DNA from: a virus
Virus genome (UHGV): UHGV-0106597
DNA length: 30,092 bases
Direction: 5' to 3' (one strand)
Made by a program: the position numbers and the translations under genes. The notes under the pieces were generated by a model. That model was given only the letters and a program-made list of their open reading frames with translations, made no database searches and had not been told where the DNA came from. Shown one piece after another: positions 6,857 through 26,445 of this stretch. Within the stretch, counting starts at the first letter, position 1. Every line of letters begins with the position of its first letter.

Positions 6857-7450
6857 CTATTTGTCCCGGTTGGCTAAGGGATGACACAATTTATTCTTTG
6901 TCGCTGATGAGGGGAATTTCTTATAGAGCGTGGACAGGCTAATATCAAAAATCAGCGCCACGCGTTGACGAGATTCCCCCGCAGCCAGCAACCGTCCGAC
7001 CTGCTCCCACTCACTCGCGGTGAGTTTCGGACGTCTGCCACCAATACGACCTTTGGCTCTGGCCGCTTCCAGTCCGGCGCGTGTCCGCTCGACAATGAGT
7101 TCTCGCTCCATTTCAGCCAGGGCACCCATCACATGAAAGAAAAAACGCCCCATCGGCGTGCTGGTATCAATAGCATCCGTCAGACTGCGAAAATTAACGC
7201 CGCGTTCGCGCAGTTCCTCAACCAGAATGACCAGATGCCGCATACTACGCCCCAGCCTGTCCAGCTTCCAGACTACCAGAGTGTCACCTGCTGATAATGT
7301 TCTGAGCAGTTTTTTCAGTCCCGGTCTGTCGGACTTCGTGCCGCTGATTTTATCCTCAAAAATCCGCTCGCATCCTGCGCACTCCAGCGCGTTACGCTGC
7401 AATTCCGTGTTCTGGTCATTTGTTGATACGCGGACATAGCCAATAAGCAT
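6857..7450 (-). CDS. Serine DNA invertase, Hin/Gin/Cin/Pin family
   Basis: N-terminal MLIGYVRVSTNDQ (catalytic Ser motif), resolvase core, C-terminal HTH (...GRRPKLT...STLYKKFP); lies directly beside the invertible segment. Confidence 0.9.
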   Translation of the reverse strand: MLIGYVRVSTNDQNTELQRNALECAGCERIFEDKISGTKSDRPGLKKLLRTLSAGDTLVVWKLDRLGRSMRHLVILVEELRERGVNFRSLTDAIDTSTPMGRFFFHVMGALAEMERELIVERTRAGLEAARAKGRIGGRRPKLTASEWEQVGRLLAAGESRQRVALIFDISLSTLYKKFPSSATKNKLCHPLANRDK

Positions 7451-7505
7451 GATGGATCCCCTGAATAAAAACCGGGGATGATGCCAGTTAGCCGTAATCT
7501 CTGCA

Positions 7506-7531
7506 TTTTCTTAAACGTTGGTTTAGGAGAA
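7506..7531. other. Invertase crossover site, invertase-proximal (hix/gix-like 26-bp imperfect palindrome, core TT at 7518..7519)
   Basis: TTTTCTTAAACG TT GGTTTAGGAGAA; inner half matches the inner half of the site at 9352..9377 in inverted orientation (11/12). Confidence 0.7.
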
Positions 7532-8029
7532 GGCTCAGCATTGCCTGTTGGCGTACCTGTTCCGTGGCCCTCAGCCACTCCGCCAACAGGCTGGCTGAAA
7601 TGCAACGGAGCAGCTTTTTCTGCTGAAGAATACCCGGAACTGGCAAAGGCTTACCCGACAAATAAATTGCCTGATTTACGTGGTGAGTTTATTCGTGGCT
7701 GGGATGACGGACGTGGTATGGATACGGGGAGGGCAATATTATCAGCTCAGGGCGATGCCATACGTAATATCTATGGTGAGTTCAAGACTGTAAACACCGA
7801 AAATTATTCAATATGGGAATCAGTAGGCTCTTTTAAGGGGGCAGTGGTGCCTTTGAACCCCTCAACGAACAATAGTTATTTCTCCTTAATCAGAAGTATG
7901 GTGACAGAAAGAACAGATGGCGCTGTTTACCCAAAAGTGATTGGCCTTGATGCTTCAAGAATTGTTCCAACTGCAAACGAAAACCGACCTCGTAACATTG
8001 CCTTTAATTATATCGTGAGGGCTGCCTGA
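7520..8029 (+). CDS. Alternative tail fibre C-terminal segment (Sv'-like), promoterless and silent in this orientation; contains a phage tail collar-type domain
   Basis: Reading frame opens at the crossover site (..GLGEGSALPVGVPVPWPSATPPTGW...); in-frame fusion to H constant part is predicted after inversion. Confidence 0.7.
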   Translation, partial: GLGEGSALPVGVPVPWPSATPPTGWLKCNGAAFSAEEYPELAKAYPTNKLPDLRGEFIRGWDDGRGMDTGRAILSAQGDAIRNIYGEFKTVNTENYSIWESVGSFKGAVVPLNPSTNNSYFSLIRSMVTERTDGAVYPKVIGLDASRIVPTANENRPRNIAFNYIVRAA

Positions 8030-8631
8030 TGAATAAAGCCGTATTAAATAACGAACTCATTGCCATAAAAGCGGGAGACATAACCGTTTATAATTATGAT
8101 GGTGAAACGCGGGAATATATTTCCACATCAACTGAATATCTTGCGGTTGGCGTCGGTATACCGGCATGTTCTTGTTTAGATGCACCAGTTACACATAAAG
8201 CTGGTTATGCAATCTGCCGTTCTGCAGATTTTAACTCATGGGAATATGTGCCAGACCATCGCGGTGAAATCATCTATAGCACCGAAACAGGAGAATCGAA
8301 AGAAATCACAGCTCCGGGTGATTACCCTGAAAATACAACCACTATCGCCCCGTTAACGCCATATGATAAATGGGATGGTGAGAAATGGGTGACGGATACC
8401 GGGGCACAGCATAGCGCCGCAGTAGATGCAGCAGAAGCACAGCGCCAGTCGCTGATTGATACTGCAATGGCTTCCATCAGTCTGATTCAACTGAAATTGC
8501 AGGCCGGACGTAAACTGACGCAGGCAGAAACCACCCGACTTAACGCTGTGCTGGATTACATTGACGCGGTGACGGCAACAGATACCAGCACCGCGCCGGA
8601 TGTCATCTGGCCTGAACTGCCGGAGGCGTAG
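8029..8631 (+). CDS. Alternative tail fibre assembly chaperone (U'-like)
   Basis: 200-aa product with Tfa-like conserved C-terminus (...DTSTAPDVIWPELPEA); start overlaps Sv' stop (TGATG). Confidence 0.75.
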   Translation: MNKAVLNNELIAIKAGDITVYNYDGETREYISTSTEYLAVGVGIPACSCLDAPVTHKAGYAICRSADFNSWEYVPDHRGEIIYSTETGESKEITAPGDYPENTTTIAPLTPYDKWDGEKWVTDTGAQHSAAVDAAEAQRQSLIDTAMASISLIQLKLQAGRKLTQAETTRLNAVLDYIDAVTATDTSTAPDVIWPELPEA

Positions 8632-9061
8632 GCCATTCAATATCTGGCGCACTGGAGGTATCAACCAGTTCCAGTGCGTTCAGATAATCCAGCCACAAAT
8701 TATATTGCGCCAGTTCCTCACCATTCAGACGACCAATAGCCGCTTTACCAGGCCATTGTTTACTGTTCATGTATTCGTTGGCATGGTTAATCAATAATTG
8801 CCTCTCTGATTCGGCCTGTTCAATAAGTTCCTCATGTGATGGTGGAGGTATTTCAACCCATGCAGGATTGCCATAACCGTCCGACCCTCTGATTTTTCCA
8901 GTCGGCGGGAATCCTAAAAACTCGGTTGCATCCTCCTCGCTAATATCAGTGAATGTGGCGATTTCATCTTCGCTCAATTTATAATCGGAAATTGACGCAG
9001 CAGGATAGAATAATGCATTCTTTGGATCAAATTTATACATTTCAATCACCCCGCTATCCAT
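8603..9061 (-). CDS. G: Tail fibre assembly chaperone (P2 G / Mu U-like), active orientation
   Basis: 152-aa product ending ...DTSSAPDIEWPTPPAVQAR; 3' end overlaps the convergent U' gene by 29 bp. Confidence 0.8.
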   Translation of the reverse strand: MDSGVIEMYKFDPKNALFYPAASISDYKLSEDEIATFTDISEEDATEFLGFPPTGKIRGSDGYGNPAWVEIPPPSHEELIEQAESERQLLINHANEYMNSKQWPGKAAIGRLNGEELAQYNLWLDYLNALELVDTSSAPDIEWPTPPAVQAR

Positions 9062-10191
9062 CTGTATGCGACTGGCATACTTCCAACCTGTGAAACAGAA
9101 AACCCCTGCCTCGATTTTCGCAACACATTTACGGCCCCTTTATTTGCTCCTGTATCTGCTGCACAAACGATAACTTCGAAATCGTCATACGGAAATGGTA
9201 TCGGGAATAAAATGTTGGTTTGGCTTGATGTCATAGCAAATCCCCGCTGTATTATTCTCCCCGACGGGTCTCTATTCCATCCTGTCCCAGATGTCCATTC
9301 TGACATACTAGGTATCTGATTTTCCCCTGTTCCCACATTCCGTTTTGCCGCTTCTCCCAAACCAAGGTATGCGAGAAGACCGGCAACATCCTTTCCGCTC
9401 AAATGAGTCAGCGTCTCATCCAGTGGCTGCTTACCTGACAGCGCATTGTTAATAGTGGTACTGAATTTCGGGTCATTGTTAATGGCTGCGGCAATTTCTT
9501 TCAGTGTATCCAGCGTGGCAGGCGCACCGTTAATCAGAGCGGTAATAGCGGCCTGTACAAACGCAGTGGTCGCAATCCGCGTGGTGTTATTTCCTGCGGC
9601 AGGCGTCGGCGCTTTTGGTTCTCCGGTAAATGTCGGATTATGTTTCTGCGCATACTGGGTATGAGGATCCTGTGCGGCAATGTGGTTTCTCATCTGGTCA
9701 TCCACATACAGCCTTAATTCCAGGACTTCATCATCCACGTATTTACGGGTCGCCAGTACCACTGACGGGTCGATTTTCAGCGTGATAGCTGCGGTATTCG
9801 TGACAACCAGAATCATGCGGATAGTCTGGGTACGACCACTGCCTTCCTGCAACTGCGGTTTGTACGTTTCCGGGCAGTTCGCCACCGCAATGAGTACGCC
9901 TTCATCATCATAAAGCCCAATCTCACGGATCCAGAATCCGCCCTCGTTCTCAGGGATGATTTGCTCCGCAATAATCTGGCTCTGGTTGTTCGGGTCAACA
10001 CTCAGAAGATTCAGCGGCGCGATGCGTTTCTGGTTAATCAGTTTTGTCTGTGCCGGGTCTGGTGTCGGCAAGACACCATTCGCATCACCAACGGCCATTT
10101 GCGTCAGATTCAGCTTACTGCCGAGCATCGTCGCGTTAGCCAGCCGTGCCGCGCCCTGATTAGTCAGAATGGCGTAGTATTTCACTGTCAT
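9046..10191 (-). CDS. H: Tail fibre protein H (constant N-terminal part fused to the currently selected variable C-terminus Sv)
   Basis: 381 aa; N-terminus similar to P2 gpH (..MAVGD..GGFW.RE.GLYDD.G.LIAVAN..E.YKP...EGSGR); crossover site lies at codons 273-281. Confidence 0.85.
   Translation of the reverse strand: MTVKYYAILTNQGAARLANATMLGSKLNLTQMAVGDANGVLPTPDPAQTKLINQKRIAPLNLLSVDPNNQSQIIAEQIIPENEGGFWIREIGLYDDEGVLIAVANCPETYKPQLQEGSGRTQTIRMILVVTNTAAITLKIDPSVVLATRKYVDDEVLELRLYVDDQMRNHIAAQDPHTQYAQKHNPTFTGEPKAPTPAAGNNTTRIATTAFVQAAITALINGAPATLDTLKEIAAAINNDPKFSTTINNALSGKQPLDETLTHLSGKDVAGLLAYLGLGEAAKRNVGTGENQIPSMSEWTSGTGWNRDPSGRIIQRGFAMTSSQTNILFPIPFPYDDFEVIVCAADTGANKGAVNVLRKSRQGFSVSQVGSMPVAYRWIAG
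9352..9377. other. Invertase crossover site inside H (core AA at 9364..9365 on plus strand)
   Basis: TTCTCCCAAACC AA GGTATGCGAGAA; encodes LAYLGLGE of H; half-site pattern TT.TC..AAACC resembles hix/gix half-sites. Confidence 0.7.
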
Positions 10192-18950: not shown

Positions 18951-19123
18951 TGTCAGGAGTCCTGAATAGTGATTAGAGGAGTCACATGTCGGCATCAGTT
19001 TCCCGACGATGCGCATCCTCCGCCATCAGTCCCGGATGGCTTATCACTGACACAACAGCACCTTAGCGAATCGCGGGGCGCGACTCAGTAGCCTTGCCGT
19101 GTATTCATCACGGCGAGGTATTC
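18951..19123. promoter_or_regulatory. Divergent late promoter region between O and P (expected Ogr-dependent promoters)
   Basis: Inferred from gene arrangement only; I could not find a clean TGT-N12-ACA activator box. Confidence 0.35.
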
Positions 19124-20896
19124 ATGACCATCACCACAGACACCACTCTTTTACACGACCCGCGTCGTCAGGCGGCGCTGCTGTACTGGCAGGGATTTTC
19201 CGTGCCGCAGATTGCCGCCATGTTGCAGATGAAACGCCCGACGGTGCAGAGCTGGAAACAGCGCGACGGCTGGGACAGCGTTGCCCCCATCAGCCGTGTC
19301 GAAATGAGTCTGGAAGCGCGGCTGACCCAGCTCATCATCAAACCGCAGAAAACCGGCGGTGACTTCAAGGAAATTGACCTGCTCGGACGCCAGATTGAAC
19401 GACTGGCACGGGTCAACCGTTACAGTCAGACCGGCAACGAGGCAGACCTTAATCCGAACGTCGCTAACCGCAACAAAGGCGGGCGTCGCAAACCGAAAAA
19501 GAATTTTTTCAGTGACGAGGCCATCGAAAAGCTGGAGCAGATTTTCTTTGAGCAGTCTTTCGAGTATCAGTTGCACTGGTATCGCGCCGGGCTTGAGCAC
19601 CGCATCCGCGATATCCTGAAATCCCGCCAGATTGGCGCGACGTTTTATTTTTCCCGCGAGGCGCTGCTGCGCGCCCTGAAAACCGGTCATAACCAGATTT
19701 TTCTGTCGGCCAGTAAAACGCAGGCGTATGTGTTCCGCGAATACATCATCGCCTTTGCCCGTCTGGTTGACGTTGACCTGACCGGTGACCCGATTGTCCT
19801 GGGCAATAACGGCGCAAAACTGATTTTTCTCGGCACCAACTCCAACACCGCGCAGAGCCATAACGGCGACCTGTACGTCGATGAGATTTTCTGGATCCCG
19901 AATTTTCAGGTACTGCGTAAGGTGGCATCAGGTATGGCCTCACAGAGTCACCTGCGATCGACCTATTTCTCCACTCCGTCCACGCTGGCGCACGACGCCT
20001 ACCCGTTCTGGTCGGGTGAACTGTTCAACCGGGGACGCGCCAGCGCCGCCGAACGCGTGGAAATCGACGTCAGTCATAACGCCCTTGCCGGTGGGCTTCT
20101 CTGTGCAGACGGCCAGTGGCGGCAGATTGTCACCATTGAGGACGCCCTGAAAGGTGGCTGCACGCTGTTCGACATTGAACAGCTCAAACGCGAAAACAGC
20201 GCCGACGATTTTAAAAACCTGTTCATGTGTGAATTTGTTGACGACAAGGCGTCGGTGTTCCCGTTCGAGGAGTTGCAACGCTGCATGGTCGACACGCTGG
20301 AAGAATGGGAAGACTATGCACCCTTTGCCGCCAATCCGTTCGGCTCACGTCCGGTATGGATTGGTTACGACCCGTCACACCGTGGCGACAGCGCCGGATG
20401 CGTGGTGCTGGCACCGCCGGTGGTGGCCGGTGGCAAATTCAGAATACTTGAGCGTCACCAGTGGAAAGGCATGGACTTTGCCACTCAGGCTGAATCCATC
20501 CGCAAACTCACCGAAAAATATAACGTCGAATACATCGGTATTGATGCCACCGGCCTCGGTGTCGGCGTGTTCCAGCTCGTGCGCTCGTTCTATCCCGCCG
20601 CGCGCGACATCCGCTACACGCCGGAAATGAAAACCGCAATGGTGCTCAAGGCAAAAGACGTTATCCGCCGTGGCTGTCTGGAATATGACGTCAGCGCCAC
20701 CGACATCACCAGCTCGTTTATGGCTATCCGCAAGACCATGACCAGCAGCGGACGCAGCGCCACCTATGAGGCCAGCCGCAGCGAGGAAGCCAGCCACGCC
20801 GACCTCGCCTGGGCGACCATGCACGCCCTGTTAAATGAGCCACTCACCGCCGGTATCAGCACCCCGCTGACATCCACCATTCTGGAGTTTTACTGA
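19124..20896 (+). CDS. P: Terminase ATPase (large) subunit P
   Basis: Product starting MTITTDTTLLHDPRRQAALLYWQGFSVPQIAAMLQMKRPTVQSW...; GAGG ribosome-binding site upstream of ATG 19124. Confidence 0.9.
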   Translation: MTITTDTTLLHDPRRQAALLYWQGFSVPQIAAMLQMKRPTVQSWKQRDGWDSVAPISRVEMSLEARLTQLIIKPQKTGGDFKEIDLLGRQIERLARVNRYSQTGNEADLNPNVANRNKGGRRKPKKNFFSDEAIEKLEQIFFEQSFEYQLHWYRAGLEHRIRDILKSRQIGATFYFSREALLRALKTGHNQIFLSASKTQAYVFREYIIAFARLVDVDLTGDPIVLGNNGAKLIFLGTNSNTAQSHNGDLYVDEIFWIPNFQVLRKVASGMASQSHLRSTYFSTPSTLAHDAYPFWSGELFNRGRASAAERVEIDVSHNALAGGLLCADGQWRQIVTIEDALKGGCTLFDIEQLKRENSADDFKNLFMCEFVDDKASVFPFEELQRCMVDTLEEWEDYAPFAANPFGSRPVWIGYDPSHRGDSAGCVVLAPPVVAGGKFRILERHQWKGMDFATQAESIRKLTEKYNVEYIGIDATGLGVGVFQLVRSFYPAARDIRYTPEMKTAMVLKAKDVIRRGCLEYDVSATDITSSFMAIRKTMTSSGRSATYEASRSEEASHADLAWATMHALLNEPLTAGISTPLTSTILEFY

Positions 20897-21930
20897 TGAG
20901 CAAGAAAAAAGGGAAAACACCGCAACCTGCGGCAAAAAAAATGACCGCCAGCGCCCCGAAAATGGAGGCATTCACCTTTGGTGAGCCGGTGCCGGTACTC
21001 GACCGCCGTGACATTCTGGATTACGTCGAGTGCATCAGTAACGGCAGATGGTATGAGCCGCCGGTCAGCTTTACCGGTCTGGCAAAAAGCCTGCGTGCTG
21101 CCGTACATCACAGCTCACCGATTTACGTCAAACGTAATATTCTGGCCTCGACATTTATCCCGCATCCGTGGCTTTCCCAGCAGGATTTCAGCCGCTTTGT
21201 GCTGGATTTTCTGGTTTTCGGTAATGCGTTTCTGGAAAAGCGTTACAGCACCACCGGTAAGGTCATCAGACTGGAAACCTCACCGGCAAAATATACCCGC
21301 CGTGGCGTGGAGGAGGATGTTTACTGGTGGGTGCCGTCCTTCAACGAGCCGACACCTTTCGCGCCCGGCTCCGTGTTTCATCTGCTGGAGCCGGATATTA
21401 ATCAGGAACTGTACGGCCTGCCGGAATATCTCAGCGCCCTTAACTCTGCCTGGCTGAATGAGTCGGCCACGCTGTTCCGCCGCAAGTACTACGAAAACGG
21501 CGCACATGCCGGATACATCATGTACGTCACCGATGCCGTGCAGGATCGCAACGATATCGAAATGCTTCGCGAAAACATGGTGAAGTCGAAAGGCCGCAAC
21601 AACTTTAAAAATCTGTTTCTCTATGCACCACAGGGGAAAGCCGACGGCATTAAAATTATCCCGCTCAGTGAAGTCGCAACGAAGGACGATTTTTTTAATA
21701 TCAAAAAAGCCAGCGCCGCTGACCTGCTGGACGCGCACCGCATCCCCTTTCAGTTGATGGGCGGCAAGCCGGAGAACGTCGGGTCGCTGGGTGATATTGA
21801 GAAAGTGGCAAAGGTCTTTGTCCGCAATGAGCTTATCCCGTTACAGGACAGGATTCGGGAAATAAACGGCTGGCTCGGTCAGGAGGTCATCCGCTTTAAA
21901 AACTACTCACTGGACACTGACAACGGCTGA
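20896..21930 (+). CDS. Q: Portal protein Q
   Basis: 344-aa product, P2 gpQ-like, start overlaps P stop. Confidence 0.9.
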   Translation: MSKKKGKTPQPAAKKMTASAPKMEAFTFGEPVPVLDRRDILDYVECISNGRWYEPPVSFTGLAKSLRAAVHHSSPIYVKRNILASTFIPHPWLSQQDFSRFVLDFLVFGNAFLEKRYSTTGKVIRLETSPAKYTRRGVEEDVYWWVPSFNEPTPFAPGSVFHLLEPDINQELYGLPEYLSALNSAWLNESATLFRRKYYENGAHAGYIMYVTDAVQDRNDIEMLRENMVKSKGRNNFKNLFLYAPQGKADGIKIIPLSEVATKDDFFNIKKASAADLLDAHRIPFQLMGGKPENVGSLGDIEKVAKVFVRNELIPLQDRIREINGWLGQEVIRFKNYSLDTDNG

Positions 21931-22099: not shown

Positions 22100-22118
22100 G
22101 TGCTTTCCCCGCCTCGCC
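22100..22118. other. cos cohesive-end sequence (19 nt)
   Basis: GTGCTTTCCCCGCCTCGCC is the reverse complement of GGCGAGGCGGGGAAAGCAC, which I recall as the P2 cohesive end; lies about 170 bp beyond Q. Confidence 0.7.
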
Positions 22119-22281
22119 CGCCCGCTTCATGGAGCGCTTTTAATGCAGTTGCAATAACACATCAAAACATCGTCAATACAGGCGATTATAAACAATAAAA
22201 AACGATCGCTGCCGCATGCAAAATCATGCACTAAATGCATGTATTGAAGGGAAATTAGGAACGTGCTCGTTTGGGTCTAAA

Positions 22282-23178
22282 CTATGATTTCGACACAACT
22301 ATTTTCCCCAAATCAAAACTAAATTCGACATCCCCATTTACGATATTTTCATTTGTCACATGCTCATCAAAAAGGTCACTAACATCATACCCCGACTGAA
22401 ACACTGGGCTCATGATAGCCACGTCGGTGAATGGCTCTTTTTCATGTGTTATATAATATTGACCATAAACATTTGCAGATTTATCTGCATCATTAAGACT
22501 AAGGACTGTTTTTGCTTTGACTTCAGGCATCAGAGAAAAATCAATATTATTCAACAAACACAGTAAGATGCCTGCTATTGCTCTCCTGTTATTATCAAGC
22601 GGCATCAAGTCCACCCCTGGAATCTCCTTCCGAAGCAATATTTTCAGCTCATTAAATAAAGAGTCGAACTTAATTGCGTCAGAACAATTGAGTAACGACA
22701 AAGCTTCATTAATCATTCGCCCTTCATTGGAACCAATTTCTGGTGTTAACTTACAAACACCATCATTAACAATATACGATTTCTTGTTATTAAGCTTCTT
22801 CCTCGCTGTAATTACCTGCCCCCCCTTTAAGTTTAACTTCTCCTTTAAAAACTCATCACTGAACATTCTTAATTGCAGTCTGATTAATGTAGGTAAGTAT
22901 TTCGGGTATTCATTTAACTCTGGTTTAACAGCATGCTTATCGCGTCCAAATTTTAAACTTAATAACAAATGATTCCTCAGCATGATATCCTTTATCTCGC
23001 CTTGATCTCTCCGATGATTATGGGCAACAAAACTCCCAATTTCAAAAATACACTTGGGCGCACTCGGCAACTCACGGGCCGTAACAAAAAGAACATCAAT
23101 ATCACTATCAGTGAAACTCCCATCCTTTAATCTTCTCAACACTCTCTCTATTCTTGAGATTGCTTTACTTTTATTCAT
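22282..23178 (-). CDS. Hypothetical protein (298 aa) encoded in an AT-rich accessory island occupying the P2 old/tin slot; function unknown
   Basis: Long uninterrupted ORF with ATG start; roughly one-third GC by eye versus a GC-rich prophage backbone; no family recognised. Confidence 0.7.
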   Translation of the reverse strand: MNKSKAISRIERVLRRLKDGSFTDSDIDVLFVTARELPSAPKCIFEIGSFVAHNHRRDQGEIKDIMLRNHLLLSLKFGRDKHAVKPELNEYPKYLPTLIRLQLRMFSDEFLKEKLNLKGGQVITARKKLNNKKSYIVNDGVCKLTPEIGSNEGRMINEALSLLNCSDAIKFDSLFNELKILLRKEIPGVDLMPLDNNRRAIAGILLCLLNNIDFSLMPEVKAKTVLSLNDADKSANVYGQYYITHEKEPFTDVAIMSPVFQSGYDVSDLFDEHVTNENIVNGDVEFSFDLGKIVVSKS

Positions 23179-23504
23179 GACATTCTTTCAACCTTAATCA
23201 ATATTTAATTTAAATAAACCATTCTCATACGCCAACCATACCTGTGACACCTGACAAACCAAATAAAAACAAAGGTACAGCGGATATTGGTATGTACAGC
23301 TATATTACACATAAACTCATGTTAGTAACATAAGATCTTCTTGTGAATATTTGTAATTTATTAGTTCACCAACATTAATCTTTCCAACCGTTATAAATCC
23401 AATCATATGCTGATACTCAAATGATGGCCAACTACCACCTCTCGCTGTTCGTTGTTCCCTCCAGCAGCACTGGAAGCATGTTTCAGTACTGCTGGGGTTT
23501 TCTA

Positions 23505-23708
23505 TCAACAACGTGGTAGCAGTGCAATTTTAGACTGTTCTATATCGTTAAACCGCACGTAATTATCCCGGACTATTTCGGCACACCCGACCAACTCGTC
23601 GGGCGTCAGATTTTCGTTGACCATAATCTGCTGTAGACGGTGAACAATAGCCATCAGCTTGATATTTTTAGTGTTATGTTGCGGTATCTCGCCTGGTATT
23701 CTGTGCAT
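23505..23708 (-). CDS. Hypothetical small protein (67 aa)
   Basis: ATG at 23708..23706 overlaps the stop of the upstream gene (TAATG); no family recognised. Confidence 0.4.
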   Translation of the reverse strand: MHRIPGEIPQHNTKNIKLMAIVHRLQQIMVNENLTPDELVGCAEIVRDNYVRFNDIEQSKIALLPRC

Positions 23709-24163
23709 TATCCAAGCCACCCGTTTTGCTTTGCACGCTCAATCTGTTCATCTGAATAGTTCCATGCTCCATCCGTGGCAACCATTGCCCCGCCAGACAT
23801 CCCCGTCTCTGGTTCATACATAACAGCAAGGCCGAGCTGATGCATAATTTCATGATTAATTCTGAATACCAGACCACGCTCACTAAGTTCTTTCCAGTTC
23901 ACAATCTCATATGCGCCTGTATTAAGCAGCTCAATACTTAGCAAGACATAATCTTCCAGCCAGTCTGACAGGTCAGTAACATCTGTTATCCGGGCTTCAA
24001 CCTTTCGCCCCGTATACACACCCTGCCCCCATTCATGCAAAATCAACGTGTCTCCGCGCTCATAATTACGGTCATTTTTCCGAAACTCTGCGCGTTTCTT
24101 TCCTTCCAGCACAAGGTCGAAATATTTTGCGTGCAGCTTTACCTCGTGAATTTTTGCCATCAT
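23708..24163 (-). CDS. Hypothetical protein with N-terminal ASCH/PUA-like (DUF3850-like) domain and a C-terminal HExxH motif
   Basis: MMAKIHEVKLHAKYFDLVLEGKKRAEFRKNDRNYERGDTLILHEW fits the ASCH pattern; HEIMH at the C-terminus; start codons overlap the A stop (ATGATG). Confidence 0.55.
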   Translation of the reverse strand: MMAKIHEVKLHAKYFDLVLEGKKRAEFRKNDRNYERGDTLILHEWGQGVYTGRKVEARITDVTDLSDWLEDYVLLSIELLNTGAYEIVNWKELSERGLVFRINHEIMHQLGLAVMYEPETGMSGGAMVATDGAWNYSDEQIERAKQNGWLG

Positions 24164-26445
24164 GTCCACTCCATTACTGTTGAGAATCCCGGCCACTCAT
24201 CAGCGACCGGATATGTGAATTTTTTCCCGTCATAATTTACAGTCGCGCCACGCGCCAACGCCTCAAGCTCCCATCGCTGCGGCCTTATACCGTTCTGAGC
24301 AAGGTCAACGCGGATACGGGTAATTTGCATTCTTTCCGACCGGGTCAGTCTGGCCGATGGTGCAATTTCATGTGGTTTTAACGGGCTTCCGTTTCTTTGC
24401 TGACGATTTGGCGTTCTCAGGCCGTGTTTTAATGCGCCCCTGAGCGCCCTCACAACCTCCGGGTCATTCCATTCGATAACACCGTCATCAACCAGATTAA
24501 GCACTGCTGCGGCGTGCTCAGAAGGTGTGGGAGCCGGTAACGAAGTATCACAACCGGTGACCTTTCCACAGTTATTGACAGGACTCCGAGGCGCGGCGAT
24601 GCCGCTTTTTAAAGTCAAAGGCTCAACGACCGGAACTTTCGGCACAATGCGCCAGTCCGTCGTTCTGGTGATATGAATATGACGCGCGCCGAGATGCGGC
24701 GCGTAAATGCCGACCACTCTCTCGACTTCTTCCTCGTACTCGTTAACGTCATCCGACGGGCTACGGGCAACCCTGACAGTCTGACAATCGCGTGGGACAT
24801 TTGCCCCGCCCTGCGCGCTGATATACAACGCAAAATCACCACTGTCTGCGGCGGCGCGTGCAGCCTCGACGCGTTCGTCAAACTCATCAGCAATGCTGAC
24901 GCCGCGAGGCAATTTGCGTAGTTCACGGTAAGCCCCCATTGTCGGCAGACCAACCGTTTTAAATTGCGGGATACGCCACGTTGACGCCCATGCGGTAACA
25001 GCCGCTGCAGTGTCTTTCAGCGGTCTGCCGGTATCGTTATCGAGCTGCCCATCCAGTGCATAGCCGTCGATATTTTTTGAGATGTATTTCGCGATATACC
25101 CCGCAGCACCGCCCCGATTAAGATGTTTTGCCTGAAAACGGTTTCGCGCAGCTCCTCTTTCGTCGCCATCCTCTTTGAGCGCGTAGCGACGCATGATTTC
25201 GATAATCTGGTTACGCTGGCGTGGATTACAAAAAAGCATCATATGCCAGTGCGGCGTTCCGTCGTGGTGTGGCTCGACGACTCGCAAACCGTAGACCTGT
25301 AAATCATTATCCTTGAATGCCGTGCGCATCAGGCTCCAGATACGGCAGAGATAACGCTGCGCATCCTTTGGATTAAATGCCTCATCGTTCCAGCCGTGAT
25401 TTAGCTGGACGGTTTTACTTTCGCCTTTTCCAACCTGACGTGTCGGGTGATACTTTGACGGCGCGGTCAGCGTGATAAACATCCCCACATCACCTTCTGC
25501 GGCGGCGTAACGCTCAATACCGGCAATGGTGTTCATCAGCTCCATCCGGCGAATTTCAGGATTAGAAATACTGCCCATCACCTTACTGATAAGGTCGATG
25601 CGCTCGCCTGTTTCCCTGTTTTCGAGATCACACGATTTAAGAAATTCCAGATTTGCCTGGCGGCGTGCACGCACATCACGAATGGCATGTTTACTGGCAT
25701 AAGGAGAACGGTCTTTATTGACCTCCCCGACAGCAATCAGTAACGCCTCATGCCAGCGCATACGCTGGCCTTTAAGCTGACTAATCCACCACTCATCGTT
25801 AAACAGACGGGCAATGGCAGAATATGCCTGCCTCGTGGTCATCTGTCCTTTACGGTATTTTTTCCAGTAGAGAGGGGAAATATTGAAAGCACGTGCAGCG
25901 CCAGCAACATGACCATAGAGGTGAGCCTGCGCCTCATCCGTAAACAGCGATTCTTTTTCGCCATGCGCATCCACCCAGGCATCGCTGAGTTCCTCATACA
26001 TCATGAAAAGCTGCGATGAGATACGGGCGGCAAACTTTTTCAGCTCCTTGTCATTCATTCCCGGCAGGCGCGCATAGTGGTCACGCTCAGCCAGAAACAG
26101 CATCGACGCGTCGGTGTTCATTTCATGGCGCTGATTCACACGCTCAATGCGCGGCCATAAACGACGCTGAAAAGTGGATGTGAGGAAATAAAACCCGTGC
26201 ACCGGGCTTTTATTGCGCCGGATGTAGTCATAGCGTGACGTAAACAGCGAGCGCAAAAAGTAAGGCAGGCGGTTAATCGTGGATAAAACACCTTGCACCT
26301 GACGCATCTCGTCACGTGTAAGGGGTCTTTCGCGCCCGACAGCCTCGCGTGGCGCGTTCCATGCATAAGCACCGGTAAACGCCTTACCGGTGCCTGCAGC
26401 AAATGCTGACGGAGGGACAAAACGCCCGGAGGCTTTAACGGCCAT
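24160..26445 (-). CDS. A: Replication initiation protein A (rolling-circle endonuclease)
   Basis: About 760-aa product with HUH-like GTPHWHMM and tyrosine-containing GYIAKYISKNIDGY motifs; ATG at 26445 preferred over the TTG at 26487. Confidence 0.85.
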   Translation of the reverse strand: MAVKASGRFVPPSAFAAGTGKAFTGAYAWNAPREAVGRERPLTRDEMRQVQGVLSTINRLPYFLRSLFTSRYDYIRRNKSPVHGFYFLTSTFQRRLWPRIERVNQRHEMNTDASMLFLAERDHYARLPGMNDKELKKFAARISSQLFMMYEELSDAWVDAHGEKESLFTDEAQAHLYGHVAGAARAFNISPLYWKKYRKGQMTTRQAYSAIARLFNDEWWISQLKGQRMRWHEALLIAVGEVNKDRSPYASKHAIRDVRARRQANLEFLKSCDLENRETGERIDLISKVMGSISNPEIRRMELMNTIAGIERYAAAEGDVGMFITLTAPSKYHPTRQVGKGESKTVQLNHGWNDEAFNPKDAQRYLCRIWSLMRTAFKDNDLQVYGLRVVEPHHDGTPHWHMMLFCNPRQRNQIIEIMRRYALKEDGDERGAARNRFQAKHLNRGGAAGYIAKYISKNIDGYALDGQLDNDTGRPLKDTAAAVTAWASTWRIPQFKTVGLPTMGAYRELRKLPRGVSIADEFDERVEAARAAADSGDFALYISAQGGANVPRDCQTVRVARSPSDDVNEYEEEVERVVGIYAPHLGARHIHITRTTDWRIVPKVPVVEPLTLKSGIAAPRSPVNNCGKVTGCDTSLPAPTPSEHAAAVLNLVDDGVIEWNDPEVVRALRGALKHGLRTPNRQQRNGSPLKPHEIAPSARLTRSERMQITRIRVDLAQNGIRPQRWELEALARGATVNYDGKKFTYPVADEWPGFSTVMEWT

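Follow-up and report, generated by a model that had tools for sequence, protein, structure and literature searches.

The P2-like prophage in virus genome UHGV-0106597 (30,092 nucleotides (nt), analysed over its full length and hereafter called the window; its orientation is the reverse of the P2 map) carries, between its cos site and the replication gene gpA, an open reading frame (ORF) for a protein of 298 amino acids (aa). This ORF is a real, selected and mobile cargo gene, encoding a protein with a new, unannotated fold and located in a defence hotspot. It is put forward as a candidate stand-alone, single-gene anti-phage or superinfection-exclusion determinant, at a probability of roughly 0.5, a function that we infer from its location and context. 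The support for this reading comprises the hotspot slot, the compositional signature of cargo, the selection acting on the gene, a moron-like superfamily, the protein architecture, an independent DefensePredictor score and the rates at which other hotspot genes and DefensePredictor picks have been validated.

Location and extent of the cargo

Sliding-window analysis (300-nt windows) showed a GC content of 0.31-0.41 across positions of about 22100-23600, against 0.50-0.60 on either side, bearing out the AT-rich foreign island that the original prediction, made from the letters of the window alone, had placed between cos and gpA. Its limits, given there as 22130-23560, were trimmed by comparison with other P2-like phages to about 22160..23312, and this trimmed island has a GC content of 36.6% (0.366) compared to 53.5% (0.535) for the remainder of the window. 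By blastn, backbone homology ends at 22153-22159 (against phages P22H4, YpM_50 and P2-SIAC10) and restarts at 23313 (P22H4) or 23430 (P2-SIAC10 and YpM_50); the stretch 23313-23560 is therefore backbone and not island. The ORF was found again at exactly the coordinates, strand and length first assigned to it (Table 1). The cos site also stands where it had been placed, its 19-mer being identical to the cosR annotated in P2 (NC_001895). Since a hairpin between the ORF and cos is read as a cos-proximal element of the backbone (see below), the cargo is hardly more than the 298-aa ORF itself. A 64-aa ORF (23317-23511) was rejected as a gene, as it is without RefSeq annotation or credible family match and lies within the shared backbone; it is probably spurious. 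An Rfam scan of the region gave as its sole match 'mir-15', which was sub-threshold and at chance level.

Every one of the 16 informative loci (those with flanks long enough), from Escherichia, Klebsiella, Citrobacter, Dickeya and other hosts, has the close family of the 298-aa protein between gpA and the portal gene. This slot is kept on both P2-type backbones (gpA 75-99% identical to that of the window) and 186-type backbones (about 36%), and every enterobacterial copy has a GC content of 30-37% inside a prophage of 50-56%. Composition, boundaries and position thus agree with the earlier claim of foreign single-gene cargo in the P2 old/tin hotspot. A survey of the cos-to-A slot in P2-like relatives, which the original prediction had proposed, showed variable content between conserved flanks: 51 phage records match the flanks only, with the gene in none of the 51, and a tblastn search of 50,697 phage records with the protein gave no match.

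No recurring partner gene was found beside the close family in the loci compared. A 183-aa gene upstream of the homologue in Klebsiella loci was considered as a partner candidate and rejected: it is Orf97-like cargo (L002 7345-7893, L003 1258-1809, L004 341-892; L032 942-1541; no Pfam match) that also occurs in phage P22H4 without the 298-aa family, and is an independent hotspot module.

Like old and tin of P2, the 298-aa gene occupies the gpA-cos/portal hotspot, is non-essential and is variable among P2-like phages, and the exclusion of other phages is the working hypothesis for it too. In contrast to that pair, it is a single gene, unrelated in sequence, and its product is without an ATPase or TOPRIM domain.

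Conservation and distribution of the gene

At the DNA level, the ORF is 100% identical to an annotated coding sequence of E. coli 13P477T, a genome in which two places match the island. Among 5.8 billion proteins, a word-indexed search identified 34 clusters at 42-99% identity, nearly all of 295-302 aa, among Escherichia, Citrobacter, Klebsiella, Salmonella, Cronobacter, Serratia and Dickeya, and every one of these is named 'hypothetical'. The ratio of non-synonymous to synonymous substitution rates (dN/dS) is about 0.10 against the Klebsiella orthologue (dS 1.6), and non-synonymous differences (pN) are far under synonymous ones (pS) in every pair compared. The ORF is a real gene under purifying selection.

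The gene is present in 25 of 5426 complete E. coli genomes, full-length in all 25 and at an identity of at least 99.2%, the carrier strains originating from pig, poultry, cattle, human blood and urine, and river water. In E. coli EC9952 (L031 1703-2671) and 23CRST029, an IS903B copy separates the 3' end of the ORF from cos, and the ORF is identical. In another genome (GCA_964063365.1; L008 6916-9855), an intact 295-aa homologue has a truncated gpA (276 aa) on one side and a truncated portal gene (131 aa) on the other, with housekeeping genes around them: the prophage has decayed yet the homologue has been kept. A lack of conservation as an intact gene in related prophages, which the original prediction had named as a ground for dismissal, was looked for, and the gene was found to be intact.

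Family, fold and motif searches

The only family match of the 298-aa protein is phrog_29586 (PHROGs v4, 'unknown function'; E 7.9e-212, residues 1-298 of 298). It has no match at E<=1 in Pfam, NCBIfam or PADLOC (PADLOC-DB v2.0.0, 5027 models), and none was obtained among PDB sequences searched with the single protein and two profiles. An AlphaFold2 model built from a 31-sequence alignment has a mean predicted local distance difference test score (pLDDT) of 90.7 and a predicted template modelling score (pTM) of 0.83; comparison of this model with the PDB and with viral structure predictions matched no known fold. The only recurring fold matches, all below significance, are to XRE/HipB, MuB-N, Aca and MarR-type proteins. 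The claim that the protein has no assignable family is upheld by these searches, and the fold search that had been suggested for it gave a confident model with neither a matching fold nor a characterised non-defence protein.

The protein had also been predicted to be neither Old nor Tin, with which the hhalign probabilities of 6% (over 19 columns) for Old and 0.3% for Tin agree. An OLD-family nuclease was rejected on the same 6%, together with the absence of a Walker A motif from the sequence and of Pfam and PADLOC matches. No transmembrane-grade hydrophobic stretch was detected (Kyte-Doolittle maximum over 19 residues, 1.58). The reported lack of a Walker A motif and of a long hydrophobic helix was therefore correct; the reported lack of an HxH pattern was literally wrong, as residues 53-55 read H-N-H. 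An HNH nuclease was nonetheless rejected: H55 is Asp in 37 of 68 relatives and His only in the close family, H53-H55 lies in a predicted helix-loop-helix, and there is no HNH match in Pfam or by fold. The HEPN motif Rx4-6H does not occur in the sequence, where the conserved motif is H-x3-R, and no HEPN match was found in Pfam or by fold.

Protein architecture

The protein is predicted to be soluble and cytoplasmic, of 34 kDa, with a basic, mostly helical N-terminal two-thirds and an acidic, beta-rich C-terminal part. A second AlphaFold2 model, of a Pseudomonas aeruginosa relative at about 20% identity (pLDDT 89.7), has the same order of elements over its full length: three helices, the invariant loop, a long helix, a three-helix module with a beta hairpin, further helices and the C-terminal beta part. 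Four residues (R35, A52, H53 and G60) do not vary among 68 superfamily members, and three more (E46, R57 and P92) hardly do; the superfamily motif reads LR..(F)REIADFVAHNDxRDxG. The loop is a local confidence minimum in both models (block 51-60, pLDDT 73 and 75). The first 148 residues are basic (isoelectric point (pI) 9.6-9.9) and the last 150 acidic (pI 5.1 and 4.3), with a pI of 4.3 for codons 213-298; in five comparisons, the C-terminal dN was 1.3-1.8x the N-terminal dN.

This pairing of a conserved N-terminal with a faster-evolving C-terminal part would fit an effector-plus-sensor layout. In such a mechanism, the variable C-terminal part would recognise a component of the incoming phage, the conserved basic N-terminal part would act on or bind nucleic acid through the invariant His/Arg/Glu loop, and the invader would be blocked, possibly at a cost to the cell.

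Residues 108-130 fit a helix-turn-helix (HTH)-like pattern, and the models give a hint of a winged-helix-like module. The likeness to MarR, HipB and Aca (winged-helix/XRE) proteins consists of the three-helix and beta-hairpin module, this HTH-like pattern and the weak fold matches; set against it, every such match is below significance, the module makes up <20% of the protein and there is no match to a family hidden Markov model. The same features bear on a moron with a host-directed, non-defence role, for example a DNA-binding regulator of host expression, or a role in stress tolerance or colonisation, which we consider decidedly unlikely. The HTH-like module with its beta hairpin, the basic N-terminal half and fold matches that are weak and mostly to XRE/MarR-type regulators would suit such a regulator, and so would the varied hosts of the carrier strains and the non-defence cargo known in the P2 hotspot. 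The invariant H/R/E loop and an extra 90-residue beta domain are, on the other hand, atypical of simple repressors, the cross-phylum spread in unrelated contexts (see below) fits a self-contained function better than one host regulon, and the DefensePredictor score is above its cutoff.

A wider superfamily of mobile cargo

An exhaustive profile search of 1.84 billion representatives identified 419 at E<=1e-3, of which 126 also pass E<=1e-10. Most members are of 290-340 aa, and the alignment spans roughly the first 220 residues. All 68 superfamily members compared match phrog_29586, and searches of these 68 against curated family libraries gave isolated matches at chance level only (two in PADLOC). 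A second protein search with a broad profile returned mostly close relatives and added little. Distant loci, searched for with a 13-sequence subset of the alignment, were obtained from Alteromonas, Vibrio, Pseudomonas, Marinobacter, Trinickia, Rhizobiales, Runella, Marinifilum and others. No conserved neighbour was present among 14 distant genome loci, and the GC content of the gene was below that of its flanks in all 12 distant loci checked.

In seven loci (L018, L052, L053, L055-L058), relatives of about 20% identity are lone plus-strand inserts in minus-strand P2-type tail modules, situated between an ORF of ~180 aa (a GpV-like baseplate gene by position) and the genes for GPW/gp25, Baseplate_J and Tail_P2_I. 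This arrangement points to a site of repeated insertion in a different prophage lineage. In P. aeruginosa, a relative is opposite in strand to the early genes of a lambdoid-type prophage and close to its integrase. A co-directional 231-aa gene follows the relative in P. aeruginosa prophages (L010-L013 10961-11656; no Pfam match); as a partner candidate it was rejected, as a methyltransferase insertion splits the pair in L013 and the gene is absent elsewhere. Plasmids also carry relatives: on an 11-kb plasmid of A. pittii, one lies beside BrnT/BrnA and a DUF4747 gene, while the annotation of Psychrobacter plasmid pA21BP1 (L062; 5342 bp) comprises MobA/MobL, a 303-aa relative and two small ORFs, and no Rep gene could be recognised. 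Neighbour scans of distant relatives, taken as pooled family totals, gave integrases, Schlafen/AlbA_2, AriA-like ATPases, SoFic, a reverse transcriptase and methyltransferases. The superfamily behaves as mobile accessory cargo, which is compatible with defence and no proof of it.

That the hotspot has captured a replication or maintenance protein (an initiator of plasmid or phage replication, or a DNA binder of the partition type) is very improbable. This reading would be in keeping with pA21BP1, where the relative is one of four annotated ORFs on 5.3 kb and no Rep gene is recognisable, with a length of about 300 aa and a possible winged-helix module that loosely resemble Rep_3-type initiators, and with the plasmid-partition cargo found in the gpA-portal slot of about a quarter of P2-like phages (PMC9122126). 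Against it, the 68 members have no Pfam Rep, Par or Stb match and no RepE-like fold match was found; Rep genes are separate on the A. pittii plasmid, whose homologue lies in the accessory region; insertion within baseplate gene clusters would be senseless for a replication protein; and no iteron-like repeats occur around the gene within the window.

A wider proposal is possible, with the odds against it: that the 298-aa protein founds a widespread family of single proteins directed against phages or mobile elements, with at least 419 clusters in Proteobacteria and Bacteroidota. Such a family would have no Pfam entry and a fold without neighbours, its activity would reside in the R...E...AH..R..G loop, and it would travel as a portable cassette across hotspots.

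Published records of the protein and its hotspot

The hotspot has been surveyed in all E. coli genomes by Rousset 2022 (PMC9122126), where 1,650 arrangements were described, many of them defensive. The exact protein is cluster 75 of Table S5 of that study, with 53 occurrences and no domain, in the arrangement 'DUF3850/ASCH + hypothetical + hypothetical'. Three of eight additional P2-hotspot systems were protective (PMC9122126). A DUF4238 single-gene system from the same hotspot, the biochemistry of which is likewise obscure, protects against T7 (PMC9122126); the 298-aa protein differs from it in having no DUF4238 or other Pfam match and in having been catalogued only. In a 2026 study of P2/P4 hotspots in Nucleic Acids Research (NAR), in which P4 loci only were tested, six of eight randomly chosen loci of unknown function were protective, and 19% of P2 elements were without known defence genes and had unknown genes at the main locus.

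In Table S10 of DefensePredictor (Science 2026, PMC13092281), WP_001043197.1, the RefSeq entry of the protein, is classed as 'Predicted novel defense gene' and is one of 1,041 E. coli pangenome clusters. Its mean log-odds score is 4.64 (sd 0.75, range 3.29-5.42) with a cutoff of 4, and its HHblits and Foldseek columns are empty, no match to known defence proteins being given. Of the picks of this predictor, 45% were validated, at a rate that rises with score (PMC13092281). With the DefensePredictor DS systems the protein shares the predicted-defensive flag, while it lies outside the tested and validated units and its score is near the cutoff. The gene had been presented in the original prediction as undescribed; it has in fact been listed by both Rousset 2022 and DefensePredictor, and is among the tested systems of neither.

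Points against a defence function

Several observations weigh against the reading of the gene as a defence determinant. No similarity to any known defence protein was found by homology or fold. A protein-sequence search did not find the 298-aa protein among the cloned systems of Rousset Table S2 (PMC9122126), nor is it among the 94 tested and 42 validated units of DefensePredictor Tables S6-S8 (PMC13092281). It is not listed by Vassallo et al. 2022, and a phage-plating test of it is recorded in none of Rousset 2022, Vassallo 2022, DefensePredictor 2026 and NAR 2026. The score of 4.64 is at the bottom of the predicted list (minimum 3.29), and the validation rate declines with the score. Non-defence cargo, namely partition systems, a cytolethal toxin and DinI, is also known from the P2 hotspot (PMC9122126), and the pooled neighbours of distant relatives are mixed, with many housekeeping genes among them too. 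The sole disrupted copy seen (L047 6001-6900; IMGVR_UViG_2700989568_000008) is frameshifted after residue 113, and could be a pseudogene or a sequencing error.

The main caveat, and part of the same side of the balance, is orientation. In 16 of 16 informative P2-like loci the gene is co-directional with gpA and transcribed toward cos, unlike old and tin, which are transcribed away from cos, convergent with A, from a mapped promoter of their own. Being co-directional with the early operon, the gene may belong to the lytic cycle. No minus-strand terminator-like site was found between the upstream gene and the ORF. Six promoter-like matches were found where 5.6 are expected by chance, and their positions (in the backbone region, 23347->23319 and 23431->23402) are not conserved among homologues. 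The original prediction had given the gene an AT-rich upstream region of its own: only about 134 nt upstream of the ORF are cargo-specific, and conservation with Klebsiella/Citrobacter homologues covers about 30 nt ahead of the ATG; with promoter-like matches at chance level and unconserved, this part of the claim is weak.

The strongest rival is an early lytic-cycle accessory gene serving the phage (in anti-defence, host take-over, or as a DNA-binding helper of replication or packaging), which would be expressed by read-through from cox-B-A-orf91 and be silent in the lysogen. This we regard as unlikely. Besides the orientation and transcription signals above, a terminator-like hairpin between the gene and cos would suit the end of a long early transcript, and the N-terminal half is basic and HTH-like. 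Distant relatives, by contrast, are encoded on the other strand from the phage genes around them, and opposite-strand placement is a classic signature of independently expressed morons. The gene has also been kept intact in a decayed prophage unable to replicate and is found on plasmids, which argues for a benefit independent of the P2 lytic cycle. Its rarity in E. coli (25/5426 genomes) and its absence from most P2-like phages indicate that it is dispensable for the phage. Furthermore, anti-defence genes are present in only 28 of 1511 P2 elements.

The comparison with prophage morons is likewise two-sided. Like them, the 298-aa gene has an AT-rich composition, sharp boundaries and a terminator-like hairpin behind it, and its distant relatives are lone opposite-strand inserts; in P2-like phages, in contrast, the gene itself is not on the opposite strand and a promoter of its own is not evident.

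The cos-proximal hairpin and other features of the prophage

The positions of the features described are given in Table 1.

Table 1. Features of the cos-gpA region of the window and of the 298-aa ORF
Feature	Position	Strand	Remarks
Large terminase	19094-20896	+	
Portal	20896-21930	+	
cos, 19-nt cohesive-end sequence	22100..22118	.	Exact reverse complement of GGCGAGGCGGGGAAAGCAC
Cargo cassette / compositional island	22160..23312	.	Absent from other P2-like phages; blastn boundaries and GC
Hairpin with T-rich tail, terminator-like	22213-22244	minus	About 40 nt past the stop codon; terminator-like match 22241->22225
298-aa ORF	22282..23178	minus	ATG start; RefSeq WP_001043197.1 'hypothetical protein'; member of phrog_29586
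Acidic, beta-rich, faster-evolving C-terminal part (codons 213-298)	22285..22542	minus	Strands 213-295 in model
Basic HTH-like module then beta hairpin (codons 95-148)	22735..22896	minus	Possibly winged helix
Most conserved superfamily segment (codons 35-60)	22999..23076	minus	Candidate functional loop
Cargo-specific 5' region	23179..23312	minus	Weak Shine-Dalgarno-like AAGG/GAAAG ahead of ATG
Backbone intergenic region common to other P2-like phages	23313..23504	minus	Promoter-like matches and inverted repeat
Small backbone gene	23505-23708	minus	WP_021517479.1, phrog_11386
Orf91 homologue	23708-24160	minus	DUF3850/ASCH+DUF7415
gpA	24160-26445	minus	

The hairpin past the ORF (in the sense of the gene, ATACATGCATTTAGTGCATGATTTTGCATGCG) is located 112-113 nt from cos in nine gene-carrying loci (the window, L001, L002, L040, L042, L044-L046 and L048), and by our own count it has an equal cos spacing in P4 satellites (P4 sequences of Rousset Table S2A). 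At <=3 mismatches the element is absent from P2 NC_001895 and from YpM_50. As its distance from cos is fixed in many loci and in P4, the idea that it is the cassette's own terminator was dropped; it is probably a cos-proximal, terminator-like element of the backbone for cargo transcribed toward cos, and may shield cos from such transcription.

The shared backbone also has an inverted repeat with 15-nt arms (23461-23495), after which the plus strand reads GGTTTTCT. In this orientation it would stop transcripts arriving from the cos side, like those of old/tin in P2, and not those of the early operon.

The second P2 hotspot, at the Z/fun position (window 6857-10191), has no defence cargo. It encodes a serine DNA invertase (Resolvase+HTH_7; 6857-7450, minus), a tail-collar fragment with two oppositely oriented tail-fibre assembly genes (7478-9061) and an adjoining tail-fibre gene (9046-10191), and looks like an invertible host-range cassette. 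In E. coli 13P477T (NZ_CP019273.1; L039 24851-28195), the island of which is 100% identical, SIR2-family and DUF6602 proteins are encoded at the tail hotspot in place of the invertase cassette of the window; one cos-side cargo thus goes with differing tail-side cargo. A DUF6602 gene also flanks tail genes in L006.

Significance

Uncharacterised cargo in the P2 defence hotspot is of a known kind, and this protein had previously been catalogued once and computationally flagged once. To these records are added here the tight cassette boundaries, purifying selection, fidelity to the slot, two confident models that nonetheless have no structural neighbour, a superfamily of 419 representatives that share an invariant loop, the lone inserts of this superfamily at other prophage positions, and the caveat of orientation. 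The 298-aa gene is a good and cheap experimental target, not yet a discovery. It provides a clean test case, consisting of one gene with no partner, two confident models and a clear separation of the conserved N-terminal from the variable C-terminal part, and natural alleles at 42-99% identity are available, all from the same phage slot. The case bears on whether cos-directed cargo running in the direction of the early operon is expressed in the lysogen, and hence on how P2-hotspot cargo is read in general. Were the gene inactive against phages, it would be a documented instance of non-defence cargo scoring above the cutoff of a machine-learning predictor. Should the gene protect, it would represent a single-gene form of immunity whose fold is unrecognised and whose candidate active site is compact and mutable, and several hundred 'hypothetical' prophage and plasmid genes across phyla would be annotated.

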